Shown here: positions 12,037-27,384 of the stretch, in pieces | Numbering within the stretch: position 1 is the first letter of the stretch | Layout: each line of letters begins with the position of its first letter | Source: Ignavibacteriales bacterium | GTDB taxonomy: Bacteria; Bacteroidota; Ignavibacteria; Ignavibacteriales; Ignavibacteriaceae | Assembly (NCBI GenBank): GCA_016700155.1 | Contig: CP065001.1 | Coordinates: forward strand, 409,788 to 441,787 | DNA: 32,000 nucleotides | Direction of reading: 5' to 3' | Notes under the pieces: model-generated | Databases searched by the model: none | What the model was told of the DNA's origin: nothing | Seen by the model: the letters and a program-made list of their open reading frames with translations, nothing else | Made by a program: the position numbers and the translations under genes

Positions 12037-12263
12037 GGGGACGCATAATATGCGTCCCCTACGGTGTTAGTGCTAACCAGTATAAAAATCATACCAATAA
12101 AAAATTAAAATGAAGGGAATGGTCTTTGACAATTCCTTTCTATTAAGTGTTATGTTTACCAACCATAATATTGTAATGCAGAACAATGTCATGCTGAACT
12201 CGTTTCAGCATCCGCAATTGTTTCCGCATCCTCCTCACACCGTCATTCCGGCTTGTCCGGAAT
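12037..12263. repeat. cluster of REP-like GC hairpins downstream of glnA
   Basis: GGGGACGCAT-AA-TATGCGTCCCC at 12037-12059. ATGCTGAA-CTCGT-TTCAGCAT at 12191-12211. ATTCCGG-CTTGT-CCGGAAT at 12245-12263. They share the loop and stem style of the hairpins at 10525-10595. Confidence 0.6.
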
Positions 12264-12426: not shown

Positions 12427-13449
12427 TCAGCGCACCTTAATTTTTTTCTCTAATGGAATTGCATTTCCCGTCCGAACAAAATCCAAATCATCTATAATTA
12501 TTTTTTTAAAAGTTAACCAATGATAAAACCTGTACGTCTTATCCAAGAAAATCATAACGTTGTTTTCAACTTTAATTAATTTTGAAGATTTTAATTCAAG
12601 GTATGGGAATTGTGATAATATTACTTTTGTAATTTCTAACTTTTCAGTTTTAATACGGGTACTTAGAATATTATAAATAATACTTTTCAAAAACGAATTT
12701 ACCGTATAAGTTTGATCTGAGTTAATACCGATGCCTGAATTATTGTTGAAACATTTTTTCATAAGCATTATTAATAATTCAATGGTACTTATAGAATATG
12801 TAATTTTATCCTTAATTTTGGCAACTATAAGAGATGTACGCTCTTCTGACAATGTAACTTCAACAAATGATCGTTTATTAATAATTGAGTATAAAAATTC
12901 AAATTCTTTTATTTCAGATTTTGTAAATGGTGCAGAATCATCTACTCTGAACTTTTCCAATTCCAATTCGAGTTTCAATTTTTCGTTTTGAATTGGCATC
13001 AACAATGCTTTAGATGCAGTTTCTAAATAACTCAACCATATCTCAGCGACAATTTGGGGAAAAACTACGTTATAATTTTTTTTGTTCCATTCAGGGAGTT
13101 GAAGACTTTGTAAATCCACTCTTAACCTACTTCTCAATGACTTTTCGGAAACATAAGGTAATATGCTAATATTTTTATCATTTAATTCACTTAACAATGC
13201 AACATCCAATTCTCTTTCAACAAACTTTGACTTAATCGAATCCTCAGTCAAATAGACTAATACAGAATCGCACGTAGGTATTCCATCTTCAAATATCGTT
13301 TTCAGGAAAGATTTTCCTGTCCGAATTTCAATTTCATCGCGCCATGGAGTAATCTGACAACGCATCAGATCATCAAACGCTTTCTTTACAAATTCTTTGT
13401 CATTTGAAGAGTATGAAAGGAATACGCGTGGTTTATTAATTCTTTCCAT
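12427..13449 (-). CDS. TIR-domain protein with a coiled coil and an unassigned C-terminal domain of about 190 aa
   Basis: 340 aa. The N-terminus 'PRVFLSYSSNDKEFVKKAFDDL...DSVLVYLTEDSIKSKFVERELDVAL' fits the bacterial TIR pattern (FLSYS start, S.W/F...E helix). It is followed by 'NEKLKLELELEKF'. The start codon overlaps the upstream gene by 14 nt. Confidence 0.75.
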   Translation of the reverse strand: MERINKPRVFLSYSSNDKEFVKKAFDDLMRCQITPWRDEIEIRTGKSFLKTIFEDGIPTCDSVLVYLTEDSIKSKFVERELDVALLSELNDKNISILPYVSEKSLRSRLRVDLQSLQLPEWNKKNYNVVFPQIVAEIWLSYLETASKALLMPIQNEKLKLELELEKFRVDDSAPFTKSEIKEFEFLYSIINKRSFVEVTLSEERTSLIVAKIKDKITYSISTIELLIMLMKKCFNNNSGIGINSDQTYTVNSFLKSIIYNILSTRIKTEKLEITKVILSQFPYLELKSSKLIKVENNVMIFLDKTYRFYHWLTFKKIIIDDLDFVRTGNAIPLEKKIKVR

Positions 13450-14281
13450 AATTTAATACCCGATCCCACTCAGTTGGTTTAAGTGACAAATTTAATTCCT
13501 GGATTAGAATAGAAGATAATCTTATTGAGATTTCAATGCTTTTTTCAATCTTCAATTTTGAAATGAAGAACTCCCGCTTCGTTTTAGATGGTAGGTCTTT
13601 TAAGCTTTTGACATGATAGATAATCAATTGTCTACTTACTTTTCCCACTGAACTATAGAGTTTGGACAATTCCTCAACATTCATTTTATACAAATCTATG
13701 TCATCTTCGGAATTTAATTGTAAGTAAGTAGGATAAATTGGATTATTATATTCATTAATGACTTCATCAAAATATCTTTTTGCATCTGTCCTAAATGAAT
13801 ATGAATAATTTGAACTTAATTTTCTCAATTCATCTAATGATCGCCTACTATCATTCTGAGCAGCAAGTTTGAGGAGTTCCAGATTTGTCAACTCAATTTT
13901 AGGAGTCAATATTGAGTCAATCATCTCTGTAATTCTTTTGTCTCCATATTGCTGAACTTTATATCTTGCCACCTCTTCAATTAATTCTCGAATGTTTTTT
14001 GAGTCAAACTCTTTTTCAATTTGTTGTACAACATTTCTTCTTACAACATCTACATGATAATTCATTGAATCTCTAATATTATCTTCGAATTTTTTAGTTT
14101 TTAATCTAACATCATCCATTGTTTCATTGATATTCGAATAAGTAAAATATCCGCCTATTAAAAAAACTAATGTCACAACAGCAACGACCCCTCCTACCAT
14201 CATTAAGAAACTACTGTGCGCTCGATAAATTGCTTCAACTTCATCAAATGATTTTCTTGATTTATTTTTACTTCGAAACAT
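13436..14281 (-). CDS. single-pass membrane protein of unknown function (N-terminal TM helix, long helical remainder)
   Basis: 281 aa. The TM segment is 'FLMMVGGVVAVVTLVFLIGGYF' after a basic N-terminus. I recognise no domain. It is co-oriented and overlapping with the TIR gene. Confidence 0.6.
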   Translation of the reverse strand: MFRSKNKSRKSFDEVEAIYRAHSSFLMMVGGVVAVVTLVFLIGGYFTYSNINETMDDVRLKTKKFEDNIRDSMNYHVDVVRRNVVQQIEKEFDSKNIRELIEEVARYKVQQYGDKRITEMIDSILTPKIELTNLELLKLAAQNDSRRSLDELRKLSSNYSYSFRTDAKRYFDEVINEYNNPIYPTYLQLNSEDDIDLYKMNVEELSKLYSSVGKVSRQLIIYHVKSLKDLPSKTKREFFISKLKIEKSIEISIRLSSILIQELNLSLKPTEWDRVLNYGKN

Positions 14282-14284
14282 CCC

Positions 14285-14467
14285 TCAAACCTCCAACATA
14301 ATCTGACTCTGTTTCAATTTACCTTTTAACAGCGCTGCTTTAAATGTGATATTTTGCTTCGGTAGATTCAGTTTGAAAGAATGGTCGATAAAAATTAAAT
14401 CAACAGATTCATCAGGAATAATATCCCTGAGCAAGTGAAAGCAGTCACCAAAGTATAGATAATTCAT
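14285..14467 (-). pseudogene. N-terminal remnant of an N6/N4 DNA methyltransferase
   Basis: 60 aa. 'LYFGDCFHLLRDIIPDESVDLIFIDHSF' matches the usual MTase N-terminus 'LY.GDC...L..LPDESVDLI..DPPY', but the DPPY motif has degraded to DHSF and the ORF stops about 30 aa later. Confidence 0.5.
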
Positions 14468-14662: not shown

Positions 14663-14774
14663 AACCTTAGTAACGCTCTAAAATTACAAACAATAAAAAC
14701 CTTATTACCTTATCAAAAAAAACAATAAGCTAATAAGGTAAAAAAATTTACTCACTTAATTAGTTACTAAGGTT
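14663..14774. repeat. nested inverted repeat (long imperfect palindrome)
   Basis: Outer arms AACCTTAGTAAC 14663-14674 and GTTACTAAGGTT 14763-14774 are a perfect 12 bp match. Inner arms 14699-14713 and 14725-14739 match at 14 of 15 positions. Confidence 0.6.
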
Positions 14775-14792: not shown

Positions 14793-14872
14793 GGCGCAAA
14801 CCCTTGCGCCCCACCCATGCCTCACAAACCACAAATCCCGTTTCTTGCCTGTCACGGCCCAAGCCGTGACAG
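14793..14872. repeat. two REP-like GC hairpins
   Basis: GGCGCAA-ACCC-TTGCGCC at 14793-14810. CTGTCACGGC-CCAA-GCCGTGACAG at 14849-14872. Confidence 0.6.
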
Positions 14873-14993: not shown

Positions 14994-15253
14994 AACTTCT
15001 CAACCTATTAACCAAACTTCTCAACTTATTATCCAACATTCTCAACTTATTATCCAACATTCTCAAATTATTAATCAAACTTCTCAAATTATGACTTAAT
15101 ATGCTCAACTTATGACTCAACATTCTCAACTTATTAACTAACATTCTCGACTTATTAATCAAACTTCTCAACTTATTATTCAACATTCTCGACTTATTAA
15201 CTAACATTCTCAACTTACTATTGCAACTTCTCAAACTATTAATTAACATTGCC
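14994..15253. repeat. tandem array of 12 full 21-bp units plus one partial (consensus about AACATTCTCAACTTATTAACT)
   Basis: Units start at 14994, 15015, 15036, 15057, 15078, 15099, 15120, 15141, 15162, 15183, 15204 and 15225, head to tail with no spacers. The array ends 45 nt before the HTH ATG. Confidence 0.9.
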
Positions 15254-15298: not shown

Positions 15299-15703
15299 AT
15301 GCTTACATACAACCTTAACAAACTGTTCGCACAGCGTGCAATCAAAAACAAAATTGCTTTCCTTACAAAGAATGGCTTCGACAAACAAACCGCCGCCCGC
15401 ATAATCAGGAATAAATTTTCAGCCCTCAAACTCACACAAATAGAAAAACTCTGCCTCGCGCTCCACTGCACTCCCAACGACATAATCCAATACACCCCCG
15501 ATCCCCGACGACCAATCCCCAACCACCAATCCCCAACGACCAATCCCCAACCACCAATCCCCAACCACCCCCTTACAAAACTAATCCACCCCGGCATCCC
15601 CGAACAACTCGCAAACATAATAGACGACATCCCCATAGATAAACTCAACGACTTCACACAACAAATAAAAACACTAAAGACACAACTACTCAACAACACA
15701 TAA
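15299..15703 (+). CDS. small XRE/Cro-like helix-turn-helix protein with a proline-rich repeat linker
   Basis: 134 aa from ATG 15299, with AGGAG 6-7 nt upstream. 'LNKLFAQRAIKNKIAFLTKNGFDKQTAARIIRNKFSALKLTQIEKLCLALHCTPNDIIQY' matches the small HTH family common in Bacteroidota-like genomes. I reject the upstream TTG at 15221 because it lies inside the repeat array. Confidence 0.7.
   Translation: MLTYNLNKLFAQRAIKNKIAFLTKNGFDKQTAARIIRNKFSALKLTQIEKLCLALHCTPNDIIQYTPDPRRPIPNHQSPTTNPQPPIPNHPLTKLIHPGIPEQLANIIDDIPIDKLNDFTQQIKTLKTQLLNNT
15509..15569. repeat. 14-bp tandem repeat inside the HTH gene (C[G/C]ACCAATCCCCAA, 4 copies plus a partial)
   Basis: Copies lie at 15509-15522, 15523-15536, 15537-15550 and 15551-15564, with a partial at 15565-15569. 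The period is not a multiple of 3. Confidence 0.85.
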
Positions 15704-16714: not shown

Positions 16715-17089
16715 TTATAACACATATCTTTTAAGACCATCTTTTAGTTTCGTTACGTTGAAATTAATCAATAGTCCAATCTTCTTTTCAGCAAATCTCA
16801 TGTATGTTAATATTTGTGCAGTATGAACTGGCGCGATTAAATCGATTGATTTTAATTCAACTACTACTTTGTTTTCGATCAGTAAATCCAATCTGTAACC
16901 ACATTCAAGTTTAATCTCTTTATAAACTACAGGAACAGCTTTTTGCCTCTCATAAAATAATTTTGATTTATCTAATTCATAACACAAACACTCTTCATAA
17001 GCTGATTCAAGTAATCCCGGTCCAAGACTTTTGTGTACTTCAAGTGCACAGCCAATAATTTTTTGTGTTAATTCATTAAACTCTTCCAA
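16715..17089 (-). CDS. GxxExxY-family protein (PD-(D/E)XK-like fold)
   Basis: 124 aa. 'IIGCALEVHKSLGPGLLESAYEECLCYEL' contains the family signature G..E..Y, and 'RLDLLIENKVVVELKS' is also typical. Confidence 0.85.
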   Translation of the reverse strand: MEEFNELTQKIIGCALEVHKSLGPGLLESAYEECLCYELDKSKLFYERQKAVPVVYKEIKLECGYRLDLLIENKVVVELKSIDLIAPVHTAQILTYMRFAEKKIGLLINFNVTKLKDGLKRYVL

Positions 17090-23348: not shown

Positions 23349-23483
23349 ATTGGGCTATTGTCAAATCAACTTGCTTCAGGCCGGGAGATATCACTAATCC
23401 CAAGTACTTCAAAAATTAAAACTTGTACCCCGCAGGTGGAATCGCTGATCTTATCTAGTTAAGGAGTTTTGAGTTTACAAAGA

Positions 23484-23672
23484 GTACATTCTGATTCAAG
23501 TTTAGTACATTCCCGTTCACACTGAGCACATTTCCATTCTCGTTTAATACATTTCTATACACATCGAGTACATTCTCATTCACGTTAAGAACATTCCCGT
23601 TCAGATTAAATACATTCCTGTTCACGTTGAGTACATATCTGTTCACATTCAGTACGTATCCATTCACATATC
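23484..23672. repeat. tandem array of 9 full 21-bp units (consensus about GTACATTCCCGTTCACGTTGA) with degenerate flanking units
   Basis: Units start at 23484, 23505, 23526, 23547, 23568, 23589, 23610, 23631 and 23652, head to tail. The array shares the ACATTCYC core and the 21-bp period with the array at 14994-15253. It ends about 40 nt before ATG 23713. Confidence 0.9.
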
Positions 23673-23712
23673 ATACATACATAAAGAAATTTTTTTTGTT
23701 TTTGTTGAATAA

Positions 23713-23940: not shown

Positions 23941-24314
23941 TTTTTAAATTTTGGTTGAGTTTTGTTTTTGGTTGGTTTAAGTTGCTATTGAATTTATGTC
24001 GCCCCAGTTACCAAATCAAAAAAAATCCCGGGGCAGGCTTTGCGGCAGTTGTACAGGTTAGGCTTGTATGTGGAAAGCGGATCGGGAGAGAAAATAGTTA
24101 TGAGTTAAGAGTGATGAGTTATGAGTTTGTAGAGGAGAATATTTTTCTCAACTATAAACCAGGACTGAATTATAAAATTATCGCTAAATAATTTTATAAA
24201 AATAGTTTAAGCCTTTGTTGATTTAAGTAAGCGGTTTATAGATCAGAAAATAATTCGTGAATATCAACCGGATTGAGAACCGCCAATTCGGGGATATGTA
24301 TTAGTCCTATTTCT

Positions 24315-24974
24315 ATGAAAAGATATGTAATAAATAAAGAAGATAAGAGTTTCATTAATAGAGAAACCCATTTTGTTGAATTAGGATTATTTGACTTTTG
24401 GTCTCTTTCTATGAAAGCAATTAAAAATAATTTCCCACCATTAATTAAAATTTCCAATATTGATGAAGCATTTAATGTTATAAAAATTTTTATAAAGGAA
24501 TGTGGAAACACTCTTATATTAGACTTACCAGATGGTTATAGTACAAATTATATCACGGGTATTGAAATTGAACAAGATACAATGCGAATTATATGGTATT
24601 CTGCAAATAAAATTTTTGAAGACTCTGACGTTATAAATGATAGCTTTAATGAATTTAGAAAGAGTTATATAGGGGAAAATTTAGAACAGCAATATGGTTT
24701 TACTTTTGATTATTTAATCTTGACACCTGCTTATATTTTGATTTATGCTGAGGAACGAGCTTTCCCAGAAACGATAGATACAAATGAAGAACATTTAGAA
24801 ATATTAACTCACCCTGACTTGAAAATATATGAACACACTTGGGGAAGTTATAAAGTTGAACCCATACTTCAGTATAGAACTCGATATTATTGTAATAAAG
24901 GATTGGTTACAGTATTATATCCCAAAGCTAATCGTGGTAGTTTTAGAGCCGATGAATTTTTTGAGAGCCTTTAG
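24315..24974 (+). CDS. hypothetical protein, no recognisable domain
   Basis: The ORF is 24273..24974. I prefer ATG 24315 (MKRYVINK...). It is AT-rich and its stop lies 2 nt before the next gene's ATG. Confidence 0.55.
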   Translation: MKRYVINKEDKSFINRETHFVELGLFDFWSLSMKAIKNNFPPLIKISNIDEAFNVIKIFIKECGNTLILDLPDGYSTNYITGIEIEQDTMRIIWYSANKIFEDSDVINDSFNEFRKSYIGENLEQQYGFTFDYLILTPAYILIYAEERAFPETIDTNEEHLEILTHPDLKIYEHTWGSYKVEPILQYRTRYYCNKGLVTVLYPKANRGSFRADEFFESL

Positions 24975-24976
24975 AA

Positions 24977-26122
24977 ATGACGATTTCAGACGCATATAAA
25001 GTTCTGGAAATTGATAATCCAGATTATTCTCTATCACAAGTAAAAAATTCATTTAGAAATTTAGCAAAAAAATATCACCCAGATATTTCTGGCAAATCTG
25101 AATATTCAAGATTTATAGATATTTATAATGCTTACAGTTATTTGCTAATAAATCTTCCCAAACAGTATTCTGTTAAAAAAGATGAAACTGCTAAGCAAAA
25201 TATCTTTAACGATTCAACAATTTTTTACGATTTTATTTCTTTTATTGATCGCTTGCATCTTGATTTTATCGTTCTACCACGACGACAATTTGGGAATGTT
25301 CCATCAAATTTTTCAGACATATTTTTTAGTCAAATTGACAACATATTTTCTCAAGATACTTTAGAGTTAATCTCAGAATCAATTTTAACTGGTCATAAGA
25401 AAAGACTTATTGATTTGCTTTCTACTATCTTTGCTGGAACATCACTATTAAAAAGAAATAAATTTTTTAAAAGAATTAAAACCATCGCAAGACAAGAAAG
25501 ATATTTGTCTAATTTAATAAACGCTACAATAGTAGGTATTCCGACCCAAATTTTTACAACTAGCTCAACAAGTATTCCCGATCAGAATACAAATGATTAT
25601 AAAAGTGGTGCAATTAATGTATTATCATTACGCAAAGAATTTTTAGATAGGTTTTTAGATTATTCTCGAAGTAAACCTAACCCAATCTTCTATGAATCAT
25701 CAGTTCCTGAAAAATCTTTTAGAGAAAGTATGCGCGAAGTAAAAAGCGAAGAATCTGCTAAAATTATATTTAAAGAAATTAAGAATAGAATTAGAAGTAG
25801 CTCTGGCAAAGTACAGCTAAATGAAACTCAAATAAAAAATGTAGTTGATTACATTTCCCAGCTAGCCGATTTAGGTGAAAATTTAAAAGGACAATTTGTT
25901 TTTACGTACAGAATTAATGATGATAAAGGACTTGTTAGTGCATTAATTGAACTCTTATTAAAACAAGGTCTTTCATATGAAAGACTATCACTACTCATTA
26001 GGCTATATCAATACTACAAACTTTATCATAAAGATTACAAATTCATTTTTAAAAATCATTCACAAATAAGAGAAGGTCAAATTCTATTGGAATTAAATCA
26101 ACTTATCTCTGATATTGTATGA
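24977..26122 (+). CDS. J-domain (DnaJ-like, HPD motif intact) protein with an unassigned C-terminal region of about 310 aa
   Basis: 'DAYKVLEIDNPDYSLSQVKNSFRNLAKKYHPDISGKSEYSRFIDIYNAYSYL' shows the J-domain helix II, HPD and helix III pattern. I recognise no G/F or zinc-finger region. Confidence 0.75.
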   Translation: MTISDAYKVLEIDNPDYSLSQVKNSFRNLAKKYHPDISGKSEYSRFIDIYNAYSYLLINLPKQYSVKKDETAKQNIFNDSTIFYDFISFIDRLHLDFIVLPRRQFGNVPSNFSDIFFSQIDNIFSQDTLELISESILTGHKKRLIDLLSTIFAGTSLLKRNKFFKRIKTIARQERYLSNLINATIVGIPTQIFTTSSTSIPDQNTNDYKSGAINVLSLRKEFLDRFLDYSRSKPNPIFYESSVPEKSFRESMREVKSEESAKIIFKEIKNRIRSSSGKVQLNETQIKNVVDYISQLADLGENLKGQFVFTYRINDDKGLVSALIELLLKQGLSYERLSLLIRLYQYYKLYHKDYKFIFKNHSQIREGQILLELNQLISDIV

Positions 26123-26336
26123 GGAAGAAATATAACATCTTTAATAAGTAAAGAATCCCGCCAAAGGCGGGTAAACAATACTGTAAAAAGAAAAAAATTA
26201 TCCGGTTCGATACTTTTGAATAGAGTCCTTTAGAAAAATAAACACATTTAATCTTTTAAATAATTATAAACACGGCGTTGTGGTTTAACAACTTGTCCCT
26301 ACTATTCGGGATAACACGACGTTATATGGCTAAAGT

Positions 26337-26753
26337 ATGAAAGAGAAAGATGACATTCAAAAACCTATTTTAGAAGGTAAGTTAAAAGAAGCGCGAATAA
26401 TAACGAATGAGTTTGGTGAACCTAGTATTCCTCCTGAGTACACTTATGAATTAACTGAAGTAGGTAAGGCTGAGATAAAAAAAGCATCAGATATTTTGAA
26501 AAAATATGAGCTATTTATCGAACCAAAACAGTACTTGGAAATAAAAGAAAAGCATAATAAAATAAAATCAAAGTTCTCGCAGACCAAAGAGAGAATCAAT
26601 ATCTCATTTTTTCTTGGCATAACATGGTACTTAGTTGTTTTCTATTCTTCTTTTATAACTGAAAATATATATGTGTCTTTTATTTTTACGACCCTTATAT
26701 TTTTAATTATAATTTACTTATTCGTTTATAAAAATGATTTTGACACTTTTTAG
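26337..26753 (+). CDS. small membrane protein (soluble N-terminus, two C-terminal TM helices)
   Basis: 138 aa. 'ISFFLGITWYLVVFYSSFI' and 'VSFIFTTLIFLIIIYLFVY' are hydrophobic helices. Confidence 0.5.
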   Translation: MKEKDDIQKPILEGKLKEARIITNEFGEPSIPPEYTYELTEVGKAEIKKASDILKKYELFIEPKQYLEIKEKHNKIKSKFSQTKERINISFFLGITWYLVVFYSSFITENIYVSFIFTTLIFLIIIYLFVYKNDFDTF

Positions 26754-26769
26754 TTTTTATGAATAAACA

Positions 26770-27384
26770 ATGCCAAGTAATTTCAATAAAAATAAATTCG
26801 ATTTAATATTTCGTACAAAGAAATTTGAAGTTGAAAATCGACAAAGAAAAGATATGAAGGAATTAGTTGAAAAGTTAGCAAGAGAAAATATCAGAGGTTC
26901 TTTTGCAAATAATGCAACCAATGATTTAACACAAAATCATTTTAAGGAAATATTAAATATCTGGATAGAATCGTTAATTGAATCGTTTGGTAAAAACAGA
27001 ATTTTGGACGAAGATATAAAAGAGGTAAAAGGATTATCTGAAACTTTTAATGAACATTACATTGAAAGAGAGAAAAATGGTTTTCAGACTGCTCTTATAT
27101 CGAAGGGCAATAATTTGGGAAGCTCAATAGTAACAGATAATGTAAAGACATTAGAACATATGCTACATAGGGTTAGGACTAATGCAAATGATTTATTAAC
27201 CTTAGCTATTGATAAGCAAAATGAAAATCTCTCCTATGTCGAGAACATCAATATGATTAGCAAAAGCAACCCGAACAATGAGAATACTAATACTTCAAAC
27301 TTTTGGGAGAAATACGGAAGACAGATTTTTATTGGTGTTATTATTACTGTTATTGGAGGAATAATCTTGGGTCTAATTCTTTAA
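26770..27384 (+). CDS. tail-anchored membrane protein of unknown function
   Basis: 204 aa with a C-terminal TM helix 'QIFIGVIITVIGGIILGLIL'. It starts 16 nt after the preceding ORF. Confidence 0.5.
   Translation: MPSNFNKNKFDLIFRTKKFEVENRQRKDMKELVEKLARENIRGSFANNATNDLTQNHFKEILNIWIESLIESFGKNRILDEDIKEVKGLSETFNEHYIEREKNGFQTALISKGNNLGSSIVTDNVKTLEHMLHRVRTNANDLLTLAIDKQNENLSYVENINMISKSNPNNENTNTSNFWEKYGRQIFIGVIITVIGGIILGLIL

Follow-up and report, generated by a model that had tools for sequence, protein, structure and literature searches.

A TIR gene and a membrane-protein gene that overlap in an Ignavibacteriales genome probably belong to a rearranged defence islet, not to a conserved two-gene system

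Several described systems resemble the locus analysed here. SpbK, which is carried by ICEBs1 of Bacillus subtilis, is a single-gene TIR NADase that a phage portal protein activates via clustering of the TIR domains (PMC12847820). In Evangelion, a TIR-like core at the N-terminus is followed by a diversified auxiliary region, and the protein aborts infection by depleting NAD+ (bioRxiv 10.64898/2026.06.25.731849). In a large 2025 survey, Yirmiya et al. set stand-alone TIRs aside as likely NAD+-depleting effectors, and Thoeris types V-VII, in which a TIR protein works with transmembrane effectors, have already been described (bioRxiv 10.64898/2025.12.03.692087). Our subject is a TIR gene that overlaps the gene of a single-pass membrane protein in an Ignavibacteriales bacterium (GenBank assembly GCA_016700155.1, contig CP065001.1, positions 409,788 to 441,787 of the forward strand; this whole stretch of 32,000 nucleotides is called the window, and the window positions below count from its first letter). 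A preliminary description of the window had put the two genes forward as a candidate undescribed two-gene defence system consisting of a TIR protein and a membrane effector. The idea of a TIR protein with a transmembrane effector was not new, as Thoeris types V-VII have such effectors, and the pair itself turned out to occur in one genome. The most probable explanation is that the locus is a rearranged defence islet and not a conserved two-gene system, and that, if any part of it works, this is a TIR NADase that acts alone as sensor and effector.

The locus consists of three packed ORFs (open reading frames) on the minus strand. Their coordinates, the 3-nt gap and the 14-nt overlap read as they had been described:

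12427-13449, minus strand: TIR gene, 340 amino acids (ORF list)
13436-14281, minus strand: gene of the single-pass membrane protein, 281 amino acids (ORF list)
14285-14467, minus strand: methyltransferase-derived ORF, 60 amino acids (ORF list)
13436-13449, minus strand: overlap of the TIR gene and the 281-residue gene, 14 nt, ATGGAAAGAATTAA (sequence read)
14282-14284, minus strand: spacer GGG, 3 nt, from the stop of the methyltransferase remnant to the next ATG (junction sequence)
13450-14281, minus strand: 832-bp segment with the membrane-protein ORF, absent from the closest relatives (blastn, junction sequences)

Whether homologues of the 281- and 340-residue proteins occur together in other genomes had been named beforehand as the decisive check, and they do not pair elsewhere. 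No relative of the 281-residue protein was found by tblastn in 51 fetched loci of the TIR family (best E=0.036), and no TIR-family gene was present in 78 loci of the membrane family, which were gathered with a tighter sub-alignment of that family. No gene recurs as a neighbour of the membrane family in its loci. In these loci, 52 ORFs are tightly adjacent to the membrane-protein gene and on the same strand. None of them contains a TIR domain; Shedu SduA_C, PLDc_2, FRG, DUF4760, DnaJ and others are represented among them by single cases only. Among all loci sampled, the combination of the TIR protein with the 281-residue protein is unique to this genome. Since the two genes do not co-occur elsewhere, the proposal of a two-gene system of a TIR protein and a membrane effector is left unsupported.

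The TIR family, in turn, has no conserved partner gene among about 42 loci. A database search gave 106 homologue clusters of this family of about 335-residue proteins, nearly all of them 320-360 amino acids long and aligned end to end; Ignavibacteriales, Planctomycetes, Nitrospirae, Calditrichia and Acidobacteria are among their sources. In one genome per species, a motif-limited scan added 40 more loci from Planctomycetota, Acidobacteriota, Nitrospirota, Desulfobacterota, Verrucomicrobiota, Cyanobacteria, Proteobacteria and archaea. When the two nearest genes on each side were clustered over the about 42 loci, an N6_N4 methyltransferase (5 loci) was the sole recurrent neighbour and the other neighbours were heterogeneous. 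Hence, the members of the family behave as single, self-contained genes that turn up at many sites. The Pfam-annotated contexts of seven members contain restriction-modification genes, a PemK toxin, Schlafen/AlbA_2, AAA_21 and other TIR proteins; together with Tn7-like TniB and TniQ genes next to one of the seven, they make the defence role that had been suggested for the TIR gene plausible. The member in question (locus L009, 2057-6085) lies directly downstream of the TniB (AAA_22) and TniQ genes and appears to be cargo of a Tn7-like transposon. The family is not a named system in PADLOC and appears to lack experimental characterisation.

The product of the TIR gene can be divided into three parts:

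13105-13428, minus strand: TIR domain, residues 8-115 (Pfam TIR_2, Foldseek, model)
12934-13074, minus strand: long helix, residues 126-172 (47 residues), with an LELELE-type repeat, a predicted coiled coil and oligomerisation element (DSSP assignment of the model)
12430-12933, minus strand: hypervariable C-terminal domain, residues 173-340, mixed alpha/beta, a proposed sensor (model, pLDDT, the predicted local distance difference test score, about 90)

The TIR-like core that had been read from the letters alone is confirmed, as both a profile search and a structure search support the TIR fold. The Pfam profile TIR_2 (PF13676) matches residues 9-115 of the protein with 62.6 bits (cutoff 28, E=6.5e-17). 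An AlphaFold (AF2) model, built on 54 homologues, has a mean pLDDT of 87.9 and was matched by Foldseek with a probability of 1.00 to solved TIR structures, namely those of Cat1, Roq1, RPS4, AbTir, BtpA, PdTIR and SARM1 (the PDB matches include 9mue_B of Cat1, E=2.8e-5, and 7uxu of AbTir). The glutamate of the VERELD sequence, which had been proposed to occupy the position of the catalytic residue of TIR NADases, is E80 (codon 13210-13212), and it is invariant in 54 of 54 family members. Its position in the W/F-x-x-x-E motif (F76-V-E-R-E80-L) makes it the putative catalytic glutamate. The alignment of the 54 sequences contains 22 other invariant positions and the window protein keeps all 23. 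Judged from its sequence, the protein looks intact, if somewhat divergent; it is identical to a protein of an Ignavibacteriales metagenome-assembled genome (P0001) that is annotated as TIR domain-containing.

The remainder of the protein had been described as a coiled coil followed by about 190 residues that could not be assigned. The coiled coil and the lack of a family match stand, whereas the length of the C-terminal domain is 168 residues. Matches of the whole model in Foldseek were dominated by the TIR domain, and a profile of the C-terminal domain alone gave nothing significant against PDB and Pfam (the best match was CDK5RAP3, E=0.08). The mean pairwise identity within the family is 0.60 in the TIR domain, 0.51 in the long helix and 0.22 in the C-terminal domain, and the terminal motif KMYRFxYW is conserved despite the variability of the domain that contains it. 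Among viral structures, the TIR model is best matched by a 358-residue protein of Siphoviridae sp. ctYcY12 (BFVD A0A8S5TU33), annotated as a deoxyribosyltransferase, which aligns over 356 columns with E=5.4e-7. This match between models suggests that a phage- or prophage-borne protein may have the same overall architecture as the TIR protein.

The 281-residue protein has one strong hydrophobic segment at residues about 25-47 (14141-14209), in agreement with the single N-terminal transmembrane helix described before. Chance is a very unlikely source of an 843-nt open frame in DNA of 30% GC, with a probability of ~1e-10 as estimated from base composition. The charges that flank this segment (net +0.87 vs -0.5) weakly favour an N-in/C-out orientation. 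A word-seeded search with the single sequence returned only the protein itself, and a profile search only two. The protein is not an orphan, which an exhaustive HMMER scan of 1.84 billion representatives rules out: it gave 127 distant relatives, counted as representatives at 50% clustering, of which 22 are below 1e-10. The best of them is 30% identical (E=2.9e-33) and many align end to end. In the layout common to the family (alignment A2), a cytosolic N-terminal helix is followed by one transmembrane helix, then by a coiled coil whose length varies, and finally by a helical C-terminal domain that carries the motif NDDRxAFDxL...W. At E<=0.01, the 281-residue protein has no Pfam match, and no family recurs consistently among 30 relatives either. 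Searches of the membrane proteins in Pfam, PADLOC and PHROGs and a profile search of PDB gave no consistent family but scattered noise of the coiled-coil type; LeoBC/LeoA, for example, appeared in 3-4 of 30 members, and an engineered protein was matched at E=0.03. The partner had been said to show no SIR2, SLOG or Macro signature, and indeed none of these domains is present. A model of the 281-residue protein from its single sequence has a pLDDT of 42 and is unusable. We also considered the 281-residue ORF as a diverged piece of a methyltransferase or of a ThsB-like TIR gene and rejected this origin, as it has no similarity to either and a family of its own exists. That family is uncharacterised and unrelated to the TIR family, and its genes are mostly solitary. 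Among the loci of its relatives (L052-L129), one has genes for a serine recombinase and a Mu-type portal nearby.

How the two genes came to overlap can be read from the three closest relatives of the TIR protein (loci L001, L003 and L005), which are 49-53% identical to it. In L003 and L005, a gene for a fusion of an N6_N4 methyltransferase with an Mrr-like part (536-551 amino acids) lies directly upstream of the TIR gene. The fusion ends with ...NITFKAAQLKGKxKQNQxKMEM, after which come the TGA, 3 nt and the ATG of the TIR gene, so that in these relatives the fusion gene is translationally coupled to the gene for the TIR domain, coiled coil and C-terminal domain. L001 keeps only the tail of the fusion gene and has an ordinary methyltransferase and BglII pair instead. 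In L001 and L005, a ThsB-like second TIR gene follows downstream and overlaps the first TIR gene by 14 nt. The cassettes span 4387-7798 in L005, 4342-6993 in L003 and 5936-7795 in L001. The nearest relatives thus show the ancestral arrangement to be a methyltransferase/Mrr-like gene coupled to the TIR gene.

In the window, this arrangement has been altered on both sides of the junction TGA-GGG-ATG, which in L003 stands before the TIR gene. The upstream change is the decay of the methyltransferase gene, which had been noticed before and is confirmed. The 60-residue ORF consists of residues 1-31 of the fusion (68% identity) joined in frame to its last 29 residues (69%), and tblastn aligns it with residues 1-31 and 523-551 of the L003 methyltransferase. 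About 491 codons were lost in frame, with the deletion junction between 14375 and 14374; 31 + 29 residues are left of a protein of 536-551. The ORF does not hold a full-length N6_N4_Mtase domain with an intact DPPY/F motif, and the DPPF motif of the fusion gene reads DHSF in the 60-codon remnant. With its catalytic motif mutated, the 60-residue product, as far as its sequence tells, cannot be an active enzyme. No remnants of the second TIR gene, of the 186-residue gene or of BglII were found in the window.

The downstream change is the presence of the 832-bp segment. The junction itself is kept in the window, where the 281-residue ORF follows it, and the TIR start ATGGAAAGAATTAATAAACC recurs 832 nt past it. 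The segment sits exactly between the methyltransferase tail with its spacer and the ATG of the TIR gene, and there is an ATG at both of its ends. Blastn aligns window positions 14279-14374 with L003 5908-6003 and window positions 12876-13449 with L003 6001-6574. Hence, one ATG of L003 corresponds to two ATGs in the window. A TIR start of the ATGGAAAGA type is present in L001 and L005, both of which are without the 281-residue gene. No terminal repeats or target duplication longer than 6 nt surround the segment. The 281-residue ORF ends within the TIR gene, whose 5' end, read in another frame, provides the ORF with its last four codons and its stop. As the tail and the stop of this ORF come from the TIR sequence, the tight coupling of the two genes is explained as an automatic product of the junction, and we infer that the 14-nt overlap is a by-product of it.

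The arrangement in the relatives raises another possibility, as the methyltransferase-Mrr-like gene, the TIR gene and the ThsB-like TIR gene may together form a separate system of three genes. The methyltransferase/restriction endonuclease-like protein would then be the sensor, and the protein with the TIR domain, coiled coil and C-terminal domain would be an effector or signal generator that is unable to work alone, so that the system would be broken in the window and the membrane gene irrelevant. Translational coupling is present at all three gene junctions of L005 and at the TIR-TIR junction of L001. The C-terminus of the fusion matches Mrr_cat and a NACHT-associated inactive restriction endonuclease family (NA-iREase1) at similar E-values, and the methyltransferase is the only neighbour of the TIR family that recurs. 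However, it does so in only 5 of about 42 family loci, the ThsB-like TIR is found in 2, and L001 has already exchanged the fusion for the methyltransferase and BglII pair with the tail alone retained. Because of the small number of such loci and the replacement in L001, the association looks lineage-specific, and we hold a dependence of the TIR protein on these two genes to be very unlikely.

A rearranged defence islet accounts for the three changes in this genome, i.e. the in-frame collapse of the methyltransferase gene, the absence of the second TIR gene and the 832-bp segment at the TIR start codon. Several observations nevertheless weigh against this explanation. The upstream Shine-Dalgarno-like GGAGG is kept at the junction and allows translational coupling, and both long ORFs are intact and similarly AT-rich (G+C content, GC, of 0.296 in the TIR gene and 0.298 in the 281-residue gene vs 0.39-0.40 in glnA, the enolase gene and the EamA transporter gene). 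The intact ORFs, the matched GC and the retained GGAGG make a recently formed functional pair possible. The direction of the event is ambiguous among the four closest sequences. An insertion here and a precise ATG-to-ATG deletion in a sister clade are equally compatible with them, because the TIR proteins of L001, L003 and L005 are 59-72% identical to one another vs 49-53% to that of the window; the distant members of the TIR family, all without a relative of the membrane protein, favour an insertion. The window TIR protein deviates at 8 of 79 highly conserved positions vs a family median of 3 (rank 5 of 54). As for the function of the TIR family, its neighbours are mostly unrelated housekeeping genes, many of the context loci are short metagenome contigs and an enrichment in defence islands is suggestive, while the NADase activity and the defence role are attributed to the family by analogy.

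The first of these points would be expected of a newly assembled functional two-gene module, in which the TIR protein senses infection and either makes a nucleotide signal or depletes NAD+, and in which the co-translated membrane protein either disrupts membranes as an effector or regulates or anchors the TIR protein, in a one-off Thoeris-like pairing. The 14-nt overlap and the retained GGAGG imply co-expression of two genes that are equally low in GC and full length relative to their own families. Furthermore, Thoeris swaps its effectors modularly and several of these are transmembrane proteins, and relatives of the membrane protein are found beside single Shedu, PLD, FRG and DUF4760 cases and near recombinase or Mu-portal genes. 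We nevertheless consider such a module unlikely. The two genes do not co-occur in the 51 and 78 loci of their families, the TIR family behaves as a stand-alone gene and the membrane family is without any recurrent neighbour. The membrane protein is without a known ligand-binding domain, and its weak N-in/C-out signal would put the large domain outside the cytoplasm and away from the products of the TIR protein. Moreover, its ORF takes its stop codon from the TIR sequence, as expected of an accidental junction.

The divergence of the window TIR protein bears on a further alternative, in which the locus is a decaying, non-functional remnant and the TIR gene is en route to a pseudogene now that the methyltransferase/Mrr-like gene and the second TIR gene have been lost. 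The reduction of the methyltransferase to 60 codons, the change of DPPF to DHSF, the lack of any trace of the second TIR gene in the window and the 8 deviations of the TIR protein all agree with decay. The two long ORFs, however, are uninterrupted in stop-rich DNA of 30% GC. All 23 invariant positions of the TIR protein are kept, E80 included, and six of its eight deviations are conservative (H13Y, I21V, W48F, K79R, L130F and R157K). Besides, most family members have no methyltransferase or second TIR gene alongside. A TIR gene in decay therefore seems doubtful to us.

If the locus is a rearranged islet with a working TIR gene, its mechanism can be sketched on the model of SpbK and Evangelion. 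A phage component would be recognised by the variable C-terminal domain. The coiled coil and the binding of the target would cluster the TIR domains, and the clustered domains would hydrolyse NAD+ with the result that infection is aborted. The membrane protein would most likely be co-transcribed cargo without a dedicated role in the function of the TIR protein.

As the pairing that looked new occurs in one genome, the locus carries little weight as a candidate new system. The TIR family, on the other hand, is a sensible candidate for single-gene, NAD+-depleting defence. The locus also illustrates how defence islets are reshuffled: a methyltransferase gene that collapsed in frame and a segment the size of a gene that sits precisely at a start codon have together resulted in an apparently designed, translationally coupled operon. 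Tight packing of genes alone is weak evidence for a functional system. There is a small chance that the junction created a working new pair, or that the membrane family is itself a stand-alone defence or exclusion gene, and that the TIR family is a new single-gene anti-phage family. In that event, the 281-residue protein would be an unrecognised membrane effector or anchor recruited to a stand-alone TIR NADase, i.e. effector capture in progress, or else the genes of its family would each act alone in defence or exclusion and move through defence islands. The family with the TIR domain, coiled coil and hypervariable C-terminal domain would be a widespread single-gene anti-phage family.

The surroundings of the three ORFs agree in part with the preliminary description. 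The GC is 0.26-0.33 across 12.5-14.5 kb vs about 0.38-0.42 on either side, and the contrast in AT-richness with glnA and the transporter is borne out by the gene values given above. The genes that flank the block are glnA, a helix-turn-helix (HTH) gene and the EamA gene. Three hairpins lie nearby:

12037-12059, no strand: hairpin with a perfect 11-bp stem after glnA, at the low-coordinate edge of the AT-rich block (hairpin scan)
14699-14739, no strand: hairpin (hairpin scan)
14849-14872, no strand: hairpin with a 10-bp stem, upstream of the block (hairpin scan)

The block had been described as bounded by hairpins resembling REP (repetitive extragenic palindromic) elements. The hairpins are present, but their nature as repeated elements is not borne out: no further copies of any of the three were found within the window, and as each occurs there once, we rejected REP elements as their identity. 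Downstream of the TIR gene, a 32-nt element that contains a hairpin (window 12181-12212, with a GCTGAACTCGTTTCAGC core) is likewise single-copy in the window. It is 87% identical to L005 4219-4250, which is located upstream of the methyltransferase gene there.

On the other side of the block, a 21-bp tandem repeat, TTCTCAACTTATTAATCAACA, is present in 12 copies (window 14997-15250) directly upstream of a gene of the Cro/C1-type HTH kind (window 15299-15703; HTH_26, E=1e-9). A proline-rich linker in the product of that gene is encoded by a 14-bp repeat with about 5 copies (15501-15569). The GC skew is extreme throughout 14.5-16 kb, at -0.44 to -0.59. The 21-bp array and the HTH gene could be the operator or iteron array of a mobile-element remnant beside the TIR block. 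Just beyond the EamA transporter gene lies a PD-(D/E)XK gene (PDDEXK_3, GxxExxY type; 124 amino acids, window 16715-17089, minus strand, GC 0.30). A second AT-rich block (window 24273-27384, GC 0.24-0.32) contains four co-oriented ORFs of 233, 381, 138 and 204 amino acids, whose sole recognisable domain is an N-terminal DnaJ on the 381-residue product. It is preceded by 21/63/84-bp tandem repeats at 23482-23678.

When compared with known systems, the window TIR protein finds its best PADLOC matches in PDC-S66 (E=8e-11) and CBASS SAVED-TIR (6.5e-10), in both cases via residues 7-98 only. The architecture of PDC-S66 is different, as its TIR domain occupies positions 151-239 of a profile of 282. 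Unlike CBASS SAVED-TIR, the window protein is without a SAVED domain and there is no cyclase beside its gene. The CAP12-PCTIR_TIR profile scores 13.8 bits, below its cutoff of 24.7. The TIR gene is not a CBASS or Pycsar effector.

The likeness to Thoeris systems with membrane effectors (types II, V, VI and VII: Macro-TM, where TM stands for transmembrane, DUF2270, DUF6650 with or without TM, and SLATT) is that a TIR gene adjoins the gene of a transmembrane protein. Their pairs, however, recur over many genomes and their effectors have recognisable domains, whereas the window pair is unique. The 281-residue protein matches no effector family (SLOG, Macro, SLATT, DUF2270, DUF6650 and others), and the window TIR protein comes from a stand-alone family. 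It has no match to Pfam ThsB_TIR, and its PADLOC match to ThsB1 is weak (E=1e-5), weaker than those to PDC-S66 and SAVED-TIR. As it has neither a recurrent pair nor an effector domain, the locus is not Thoeris. The 60-residue ORF, for its part, derives from a Type II N6/N4 methyltransferase-Mrr fusion gene such as those intact in L003 and L005, and differs from them in that it keeps the first 31 and last 29 residues only.

Evangelion (DUF4062) is closer in its overall plan. Like the window family, it is encoded by one gene, whose product has a conserved TIR-like core at the N-terminus and is diversified towards the C-terminus (identities of 0.60 and 0.22 in the window family), and the conserved aromatic residue and catalytic glutamate, F11 and E87 in Evangelion, have counterparts in F10 and E80 of the window protein. 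The lineages are different, as the window family is longer and contains a coiled coil, and a Pfam search of the window TIR protein at E<=1 did not find DUF4062 but TIR_2 instead. With SpbK, the proposed likeness is a TIR NADase and a non-TIR region in one polypeptide without a partner gene, on mobile DNA, and with clustering driven by a phage protein. No sequence link between the two emerged here beyond the TIR fold, and the window family differs in its N-terminal TIR domain, 47-residue coiled coil and hypervariable 168-residue C-terminal domain. In summary, the TIR gene, which comes from a family that appears not to have been studied so far, seems to be of the stand-alone TIR sensor-effector kind.

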